In this document: one piece after another, positions 57,272-57,563 of the stretch
Numbering within the stretch: position 1 is the first letter of the stretch
How the letters are laid out: every line of letters begins with the position of its first letter
From: Rhizobiaceae bacterium
GTDB lineage: Bacteria > Pseudomonadota > Alphaproteobacteria > Rhizobiales > Rhizobiaceae
Assembly: GCA_965198665.1 (NCBI GenBank)
Contig: CBDAPT010000008.1
Coordinates: 378,809 to 442,808, forward strand
Direction: 5' to 3'
Length of the DNA stretch: 64,000 nt
Position numbers and translations under genes: made by a program
The notes under the pieces: generated by a model
Told to the model about the DNA's origin: nothing
Databases searched by the model: none
Seen by the model: the letters and a program-made list of their open reading frames with translations, nothing else

Positions 57272-57563
57272 ATTGGACAAAAATTCAACCAATGCAATCC
57301 AAAACCATACCAATTACAGACCATTCACGTATTTTTTTCGTGTTTTCCGGCAAAATTCTGATACATTTGCGTGATCGAACGCCGCATTTCTTCCTTAACG
57401 TAAACCTATTCGGGTGGTGCTGGCAGTCCCAATTTCAGCTCTGCTGAAGGAAATTGTGCCTTCATTTGAGCATTTTAGAACACCGACTTTTCCCGTGAAG
57501 AACCAAAAATCCATTGGCAAATTGGTAATTTTTTGGTTACAACCAATTAGGACCAATTTTGGT
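57272..57563. promoter_or_regulatory. Second array of ATTGGT/ACCAAT repeats in the SBP / amt divergent region
   Basis: ATTGG-n11-ACCAAT (57272-57293); ACCATACCAATT (57304-57315). A dense block at 57502-57563 holds ACCAA, ATTGG, ATTGGT, TTGGTT-AC-AACCAATT and ACCAATTTTGGT. Confidence 0.6.

Follow-up and report, generated by a model that had tools for sequence, protein, structure and literature searches.

In 2016, Lidbury et al. reportedly described TmoR as a GntR-family repressor of tmm in Ruegeria pomeroyi. The protein, SPO1553 of R. pomeroyi DSS-3, has been characterized as a GntR-family repressor of tmm whose DNA-binding domain shifts a tmm promoter fragment with a Kd of ~5 µM, and deletion of tmoR raises tmm expression 4.4-fold (PMC13390433, Wang et al. 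2026). Genetic data suggest DMA and, more weakly, TMAO as its effectors; its action is specific to tmm among the catabolic genes tested in R. pomeroyi, and one gene of unknown function usually lies between tmoR and tmm (PMC13390433). The operator sequence is absent from that paper, which gives no motif, palindrome, footprint or binding site. Two other repressors of the FadR subfamily of GntR proteins offer operators for comparison: the E. coli PdhR box is AATTGGTnnnACCAATT (PMC7660256), and E. coli NanR binds as three cooperative dimers to the direct GGTATA repeats of a (GGTATA)3 operator (PMC8012715).

Here we examine a stretch of 64,000 nt from a Rhizobiaceae bacterium (the window) in which the words ATTGGT and ACCAAT cluster upstream of methylated-amine genes. 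We consider it probable (roughly 0.78) that these words are half-sites of the operator of the local GntR-family protein, a predicted TmoR orthologue, which would repress tmm, tmoXWV-tmoR and amt. The link between TmoR and tmm is already published and is not a discovery of this work; the operator word, the phased-array architecture and the tmoXWV-tmoR and amt targets are new predictions made from sequence.

Gene content of the locus

The motif lies in two divergent promoter regions, one between tmm and a gene for a Peripla_BP_6 protein (BP6), the other a 469-bp spacer (57141-57609) between the divergent transcription units of tmoX and amt; tmm and BP6 stand ~9 kb upstream of the latter region (Table 1). 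The window regulator carries both domains expected of a FadR-subfamily GntR protein, an N-terminal wHTH (PF00392, residues 24-84, E 8e-18) and a C-terminal FCD domain (PF07729, residues 113-237, E 1.4e-21), and its relatives in the PDB are 6AZ6, NanR (6ON4) and PdhR (5KVR). As is usual for tmoR, one gene, BP6, intervenes between the regulator and tmm, an order broken in the window only by an IS110 element and an orphan EhuB-like binding-protein gene (51110-52030) that stand between BP6 and the GntR gene. Insertion sequences are abundant in the window (three IS110-family, one IS21/Mu-like and one IS30-like), the IS30-like element lying directly downstream of tmm.

Table 1. Coordinates of genes, putative operator arrays and other features in the window and, where named, in related loci
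Feature	Locus	Coordinates	Strand	Basis
tmm, trimethylamine monooxygenase	window	46705-48042	-	NF058570 800 bits, cut-off 675
Peripla_BP_6 (BP6, "AmiC-like"), without signal peptide, divergent from tmm	window	48264-49574	+	PF13458, N-terminus comparison
GntR/FadR-subfamily regulator (wHTH + FCD), predicted TmoR orthologue	window	52040-52786	-	PF00392 + PF07729
Fused ProW-like permease of tmoXWV-type ABC importer	window	52919-54856	-	
ProV-like ATPase of tmoXWV-type ABC importer	window	54853-55884	-	
TmoX, OpuAC-family binding protein of ABC importer	window	56184-57140	-	PDB 4XZ6 match
amt RBS (GGAGGGG)	window	57597-57603; ATG at 57610		
Amt-family transporter, divergent ("class I"), predicted regulon member	window	57610-58992	+	PF00909 179 bits
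53-codon single-pass membrane ORF, 24 nt 3' of amt	window	59017-59178	+	
Putative operator array of tmm/BP6 divergent promoter region	window	48085-48217	.	enrichment, L001 invariance
Putative tmoX-proximal operator array	window	57268-57336	-	sequence; conserved island vs L001
Putative amt-proximal operator array	window	57502-57563	+	sequence, shuffles, conserved island vs L001
Insertion sequences	window	17021-17998, 18720-20219, 36918-37952, 45475-46443, 50209-51309		
Amt-companion ORF	L001	2987-3148		
Amt-companion ORF	L035	3670-3846		
Amt-companion ORF	L033	4767-4982		
Amt-companion ORF	L037	18070-18291		
Relaxed-pattern clusters judged chance	window	57841		
Relaxed-pattern clusters judged chance	L001	15121, 15361		
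Relaxed-pattern clusters judged chance	L003	7001, 9801		
Relaxed-pattern clusters judged chance	L006	6231		

The preliminary description placed the GntR gene last in the ABC operon, which agrees with its position on the minus strand after the permease gene, as the last gene on the tmoXWV strand. In the 132 bp between the two genes, that strand has neither a terminator-like nor a promoter-like site, so co-transcription of the regulator with tmoXWV, and hence autoregulation, is plausible. The binding protein of this importer matched PDB entry 4XZ6 with E 3.7e-175 and ~85% identity; the entry is named a glycine betaine/proline binding protein and is one that we take to be R. pomeroyi TmoX. By its sequence, the window protein is a true TmoX orthologue.

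On the other side of the spacer, the Amt protein scored 192 bits against the NCBIfam amt model, below its cut-off of 343, though the PF00909 domain is present. It is 92% identical to the Amt of the nearest related locus (L001, see below) and 67% identical to that of L035. The 53-codon ORF that follows is 66% identical in L001 and has no Pfam or NCBIfam match. A single-pass membrane ORF of 53-73 aa (58-73 aa in L035, L033 and L037), without a Pfam family, trails every class I Amt gene examined, and a conserved 183-aa ORF without a Pfam match comes next (59276-59827 in the window, also in L001). No tdm homologue was found in the window by tblastn, nor were dmm, gmaS, mgs or mgd found among the larger window ORFs scanned against Pfam. 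A plasmid origin was considered and set aside, as megablast against PLSDB returned only weak matches (≤80% identity, each covering ≤10% of the query).

The GntR-adjacent BP6 lacks a signal peptide in all copies examined (window, L004, L005, L037 and L043), including the SPO1552-like gene of L043, while a Tat signal is present in those BP6 paralogues that accompany a LivHMGF-type ABC transporter (L004a, L005, L037a). This division suggests that the GntR-adjacent BP6 may be a cytoplasmic ligand sensor, by analogy with AmiC, and not a transport protein.

Half-site arrays in the window and in related loci

In the tmoX/amt spacer, the half-sites fall in two blocks. The preliminary description had listed ATTGG (57272-57276) followed after 11 nt by ACCAAT (57288-57293), and, in a 62-bp block just upstream of the amt RBS, ACCAA at 57502, ATTGG at 57513, ATTGGT at 57521, TTGGTT-ac-AACCAATT at 57533-57549 and ACCAATTTTGGT at 57552-57563; all of these elements are present as described, and the block ends 34 nt before the RBS and 47 nt before the amt ATG. 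Its count of at least nine half-sites proved conservative, as a one-mismatch hexamer definition gives 12 in 57272-57563, plus TCCAAA at 57298 (12-13 in total). The tmoX-proximal array consists of four direct repeats on the tmoX strand (AATGGT 57325-57320, ATTGGT 57314-57309, TTTGGA 57303-57298 and ATTGGT 57293-57288), followed by one inverted half-site on the plus strand (ATTGGA 57272-57277). The amt-proximal array reads ACCAAA 57502(-), ATTGGC 57513(+), ATTGGT 57521(+), TTTGGT 57532(+), ACCAAT 57542(-), ACCAAT 57552(-) and TTTGGT 57558(+), with an inverted pair TTGGT-TACA-ACCAA (57533-57546) nested inside ATTGGT...ACCAAT (57521-57557). Half-sites of the tmm/BP6 region begin at 48085(+), 48104(-), 48124(-), 48166(-), 48181(+), 48202(+) and 48211(+), and TGGTATACCA occupies 48087-48096. 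Two sites probably reflect chance: one of the 12 half-sites, at 57428, isolated from both blocks, and a single exact half-site on the minus strand (ATCATTGGTATTC at 59013), within the 24 nt that separate amt from the 53-codon ORF.

Clustering was measured against 2000 dinucleotide-preserving shuffles. Taken together, the four 5-mers number 16 in the 469-bp spacer (3.6 ± 2.0 in shuffled sequence) and 10 in the 62-bp block (1.75 in shuffled sequence); neither count was reached in any shuffle (0/2000 each), nor was the count observed in the tmm/BP6 spacer (0/2000). Exact ATTGGT/ACCAAT hexamers number 37 in the 64 kb, and 10 of the 37 lie in the two spacers (1.1% of the window); the remainder are scattered singletons. 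The preliminary description had noticed no comparable arrays in the other intergenic regions that it read, and sliding-window density bore this out, with only two hot spots in the 64 kb (47900-48250 and 57250-57563). It had also allowed that the motif might turn out to be a generic repeat, a prospect that did not materialize within the 64 kb, where the motif is dense at two places only and belongs to no repeat family; neither intergenic region had an Rfam match at E≤1. The same empty Rfam result disposed of a riboswitch or sRNA in the long spacer. Relaxed-pattern clusters in coding regions (Table 1) are unphased and imperfect and were judged to be chance.

It is scarcely credible that the arrays are chance clusters in an AT-rich spacer, a generic intergenic repeat or plain promoter elements. 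Such an explanation could draw on the GC content of the array spacers, 0.42-0.43 against 0.53 for the window, and on the tmm promoters, where the -10 hexamer overlaps the AAT of a half-site (AATTGG). Against it stand the shuffles, the lack of a repeat family, the coincidence of the arrays with conserved islands, their phasing at the helical repeat, and the recurrence of the word across orders of Alphaproteobacteria only beside the GntR regulator, the last three of which are described below.

The nearest relative, L001, is a Rhizobiaceae MAG found by scanning genome contigs with the regulator. Its gene order is the same without the insertion sequence, and GntR and BP6 are 81% and 85% identical to those of the window. 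The 469-bp tmoX/amt spacer of the window and its 722-bp counterpart in L001 align at exactly three islands: 57268-57336 with L001 5114-5182 (82.6% over 69 bp), 57507-57562 with L001 4868-4923 (80% over 56 bp), and the amt RBS and start. Of these, the first two coincide with the two half-site blocks, and the rest of the spacer is unalignable. In the tmm/BP6 spacer, it is likewise the half-sites and the -35 that form the invariant blocks. The tmoX gene of L001 (tmoXWV at 5277-9658) is only 47% identical to that of the window, yet the upstream operator island is common to both, and the window tmoXWV genes therefore appear, from sequence, to have been exchanged while the operator in front of them was kept. 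The window tmoXWV is Roseobacter-like, with 75-78% nucleotide identity to L043, L038 and L039. In L001, some 250 bp that are not present in the window (4590-4840) lie between the amt-proximal array and the amt RBS; they contain three additional half-sites as well as a hairpin, GCCGATGCTTTGGCATCGCC, that resembles a terminator and has a T-run after it, and may represent a small transcript or attenuator.

Synteny of GntR, BP6 and tmm was found in L001-L005, L030, L033-L035, L037, L043 and L046, with the regulator adjoining a BP6 gene that diverges from tmm. These loci cover Rhodobacterales, Hyphomicrobiales, a Kiloniellaceae MAG and Pseudomonas sp. GX19020, the last of which was given as a tmoR carrier in PMC13390433. 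In the 11 tmm-upstream regions from loci with a GntR/FCD orthologue, ACCAAT/ATTGGT ranked first among all 6-mers, with 25 occurrences observed against 1.5 expected and a presence in 11/11 loci; TACCAA, AATTGG, ATACCA and GGTATA ranked next, and ACCAAT still ranked first when the window and L001 were left out. Alignment of 39 sites gave the half-site consensus aATTGGTAtA. Arrays adjoin the GntR orthologue in 13 loci, and none was found in three tmm/tmoX loci without GntR: L032, L038 and L039, that is, pAMI6 of Paracoccus aminophilus and a pair of Roseovarius-type tmoX loci with LysR or TorSR neighbours (L038 and L039). The latter pair, reached by a search with the protein sequence of PDB 4XZ6 that gave no 100% match, served as negative controls. 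A 56%-identical homologue of the regulator in L036 stands in an unrelated context and has no arrays, indicating that identity alone does not prove orthology.

The connection to experiment is provided by L043, a 14-kb R. pomeroyi-like contig recovered from metagenomes with the published Ptmm-F primer. Its gene order is amt, GntR, BP6, tmm, tmoXWV, and it carries both Ptmm EMSA primers (from the supplement of PMC13390433), 145 bp apart. The sequence between them reads TTGACA-GACTGGTCC, then CTGGTTCAGACCAAAAAGAACCAATTGATCCAACCAAG: one half-site abuts the -35, a TGGT-N4-ACCA inverted pair lies at the start region, and two more phased ACCAA words follow. The same half-site array is therefore present inside the probe bound by TmoR. 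The window regulator is 56% identical to the L043 GntR protein over 235 aa (E 1e-94), with a nearly conserved wHTH; the first 15 residues do not align. The R. pomeroyi and window regulators share wHTH and FCD domains, the synteny of GntR, signal-less BP6 and tmm, and tmm as a known or predicted target. They differ in their surroundings: the window gene ends a tmoXWV operon, and further arrays stand upstream of tmoX and of a class I amt. The R. pomeroyi-like contig has no array at tmoX, and its tmoR is preceded by a class II amt with an array of its own. Between amt and tmoR in L043, a strong GC hairpin with a T-rich tail (1505-1550) makes co-transcription of the two genes there uncertain.

Predicted operator architecture and promoters

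Spacings between half-sites of the same orientation peak at 10-11, 20-22, 30-33 and 40-43 bp. Their vector strength at a period of 10.5-11 bp was 0.60, compared with 0.107 ± 0.055 in jittered controls (0/2000 reached 0.60). The four tmoX-proximal repeats are spaced 11/11/10 bp start to start and recur as the same four in L001; three direct repeats at 11/11 precede tdm (DUF1989 + GCV_T) in L001, and those of L046 are spaced 21/11/10. Convergent pairs favour ATTGGT-N4-ACCAAT (start-to-start distance 10), and N2 pairs also occur. No convergent pair was found at a start-to-start distance of 9, the N3 palindrome ATTGGT-N3-ACCAAT.

The half-site is of the FadR/PdhR type (TNGT or (A)ATTGGT), its 7 bp AATTGGT being identical to that of PdhR. 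PdhR is also autoregulated within its operon, as predicted for the window regulator, and many homologues carry the JGI annotation "repressor for pyruvate dehydrogenase complex". The single symmetric N3 palindrome of FadR and PdhR is replaced here by N4 (or N2) pairs and, at most sites, direct repeats at 10-11 bp; the genomic context is methylated-amine and not pyruvate metabolism, and the regulator scores 40 bits on the NCBIfam PdhR model, whose cut-off is 330. With at least two direct repeats at a fixed short spacing, the window operator rather resembles, by analogy, the repeat operator of NanR, the best NCBIfam match of the regulator at 74.7 bits (below the 260 cut-off). The NanR operator likewise consists of direct repeats containing GGTAT(A), at least two repeats with defined spacing are needed, and several dimers bind side by side, an arrangement that we propose for the window regulator. 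The differences are a repeat period of ~8-9 bp in NanR against 10-11 bp here, the mixed orientations and 4-7 half-sites of the present arrays, and the N-terminal extension before the wHTH, which mediates cooperative binding in the NanR-type assembly and has 32 residues in NanR against ~23 in the window regulator.

The identity of the half-site with that of PdhR also raises the question of whether another factor binds these words and the GntR protein is irrelevant: a pyruvate-sensing PdhR encoded elsewhere, a nucleoid protein, or the AraC-type master regulator TmaR, which also binds the R. pomeroyi tmm promoter and belongs to a family whose members often use direct repeats ~21 bp apart. We regard this as very improbable. 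The promoters expected to be TmaR targets, those of mgs-gmaS and dmm, which TmaR activates, have no arrays in L030, L033 or L035, and no TmaR-like AraC gene was present among the window ORFs scanned. The N3 palindrome of PdhR occurs in no array, and arrays are found where the GntR gene is present and not in the loci without it.

At tmm, the half-sites are interleaved with a promoter-like sequence, TTGACT-16-TAAAAT, that has 10/12 consensus matches. The tmm strand reads TTGACT-ATTGGTTCGAATATCC-TAAAAT-TGGTTCAGGTATGGTATACCAAT, or, divided at the half-sites, TTGACT|ATTGGTT...TAAAAT|TGGTT...ATGGTATACCAAT, which places half-sites directly against the -35, across part of the -10 and over the start region. 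The same arrangement of half-sites at the -35 and -10 was found in L001, L002, L003, L030, L034, L035 and L043. This interleaving fits repression by promoter occlusion.

No promoter for tmoX or amt could be placed with confidence in their spacer. On the tmoX strand, the sole match to the consensus (57499-57472) falls where the sequence is not conserved, and the tmoX array may contain a weak promoter of its own or act as a roadblock. On the amt strand, no sigma-70-like promoter was found, and the only plausible -10 is TAGATAAT at 57575-57582. Reading the amt block as a sigma-54 promoter (TGGCAC-N5-TTGC) was rejected, since the GG-to-GC spacings do not fit.

These observations bear on the possibility that the words are TmoR sites at which the protein acts as an activator or dual regulator of tmoX and/or amt, for example by recruiting RNA polymerase to a promoter without a good -35. 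Some FadR-subfamily regulators, FadR and PdhR among them, are dual regulators, and the amt block lies upstream of its only plausible -10, in a position suited to class I/II activation. Such a role nevertheless appears unlikely: the -35 of a promoter with this -10 would coincide with the half-sites at 57552-57563, the four phased repeats of the tmoX array look like the arrays of tmm and of L001 tdm, and TmoR represses tmm, where sites extend over the -35 spacer, the -10 and the start region. Measured from centre to centre, the two arrays of the tmoX/amt spacer lie ~233 bp apart in the window (57302 and 57535) and ~253 bp apart in L001 (5148 and 4895); both distances are near whole helical turns and would permit looping between the arrays.

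Scope of the predicted regulon

The preliminary description proposed a methylated-amine regulon in which a single, autoregulated protein controls tmm, the AmiC-like protein, the ABC importer, and amt with its companion. The sequence evidence largely supports this idea for the window, where the motif is confined to two divergent promoter regions, is footprinted by conservation, tracks the GntR gene, occurs in the TmoR-bound probe and has a FadR-type half-site; membership of amt and tmoXWV, however, is lineage-specific. Arrays precede tmm/BP6, tmoXWV-GntR and class I amt in the window, and the same three plus tdm in L001. In L033 (Ponticoccus) and in the R. pomeroyi-like L043, they precede tmm/BP6 and a class II amt just upstream of tmoR; class II Amt proteins are only ~25% identical and unrelated to class I, and two unrelated classes thus stand under the same operator in different lineages. 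In L005, L037 and L046, an array occupies the spacer common to tmm and a Tat-exported BP6 with an ABC transporter. No arrays were found upstream of amt in L030 (class II) or L035 (class I), which indicates that the extended regulon is lineage-specific, nor upstream of tmoX in L043.

For the organism of the window, we infer that regulation is exerted by the GntR protein. Binding of these words by TmoR, its cooperativity, its role as a repressor and not an activator at tmoX and amt, and the effector itself are likewise inferred. When methylated amines are lacking, several TmoR dimers would occupy helically phased half-sites and line a single face of the DNA over the core promoters; at tmm, RNA polymerase would be excluded by TmoR bound at the -35, the -10 and the start region. 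Methylated amines would derepress the TMAO importer operon and Amt with its 53-codon companion together with tmm and the AmiC-like protein, and the position of tmoR as the last gene of the importer operon would provide autoregulation.

A more far-reaching version of this model is possible, if doubtful. TmoR would be a second NanR-like repressor that polymerises cooperatively on promoter-wide arrays and possibly loops the ~233 bp between them; its signal would arrive via the adjacent signal-less BP6 and not through its own FCD pocket, and the Amt proteins would be methylated-amine transporters or sensors and not ammonium channels. There is a modest chance that the arrays represent a candidate second case of the multi-dimer repression on repeat operators that, within the GntR family, has been described as unique to NanR.

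Marine and soil Alphaproteobacteria turn over trimethylamine and TMAO, a process that contributes to nitrogen cycling and aerosol chemistry; descriptions of its regulation date only from 2016 and 2026 and give no operator sequence. With a defined TmoR half-site, EMSA, footprint and reporter mutants could be designed, and it would be directly testable whether some lineages place TMAO import and Amt-like transporters under common control with tmm. Together with the array architecture, it would make TmoR regulons readable from genomes and metagenomes.
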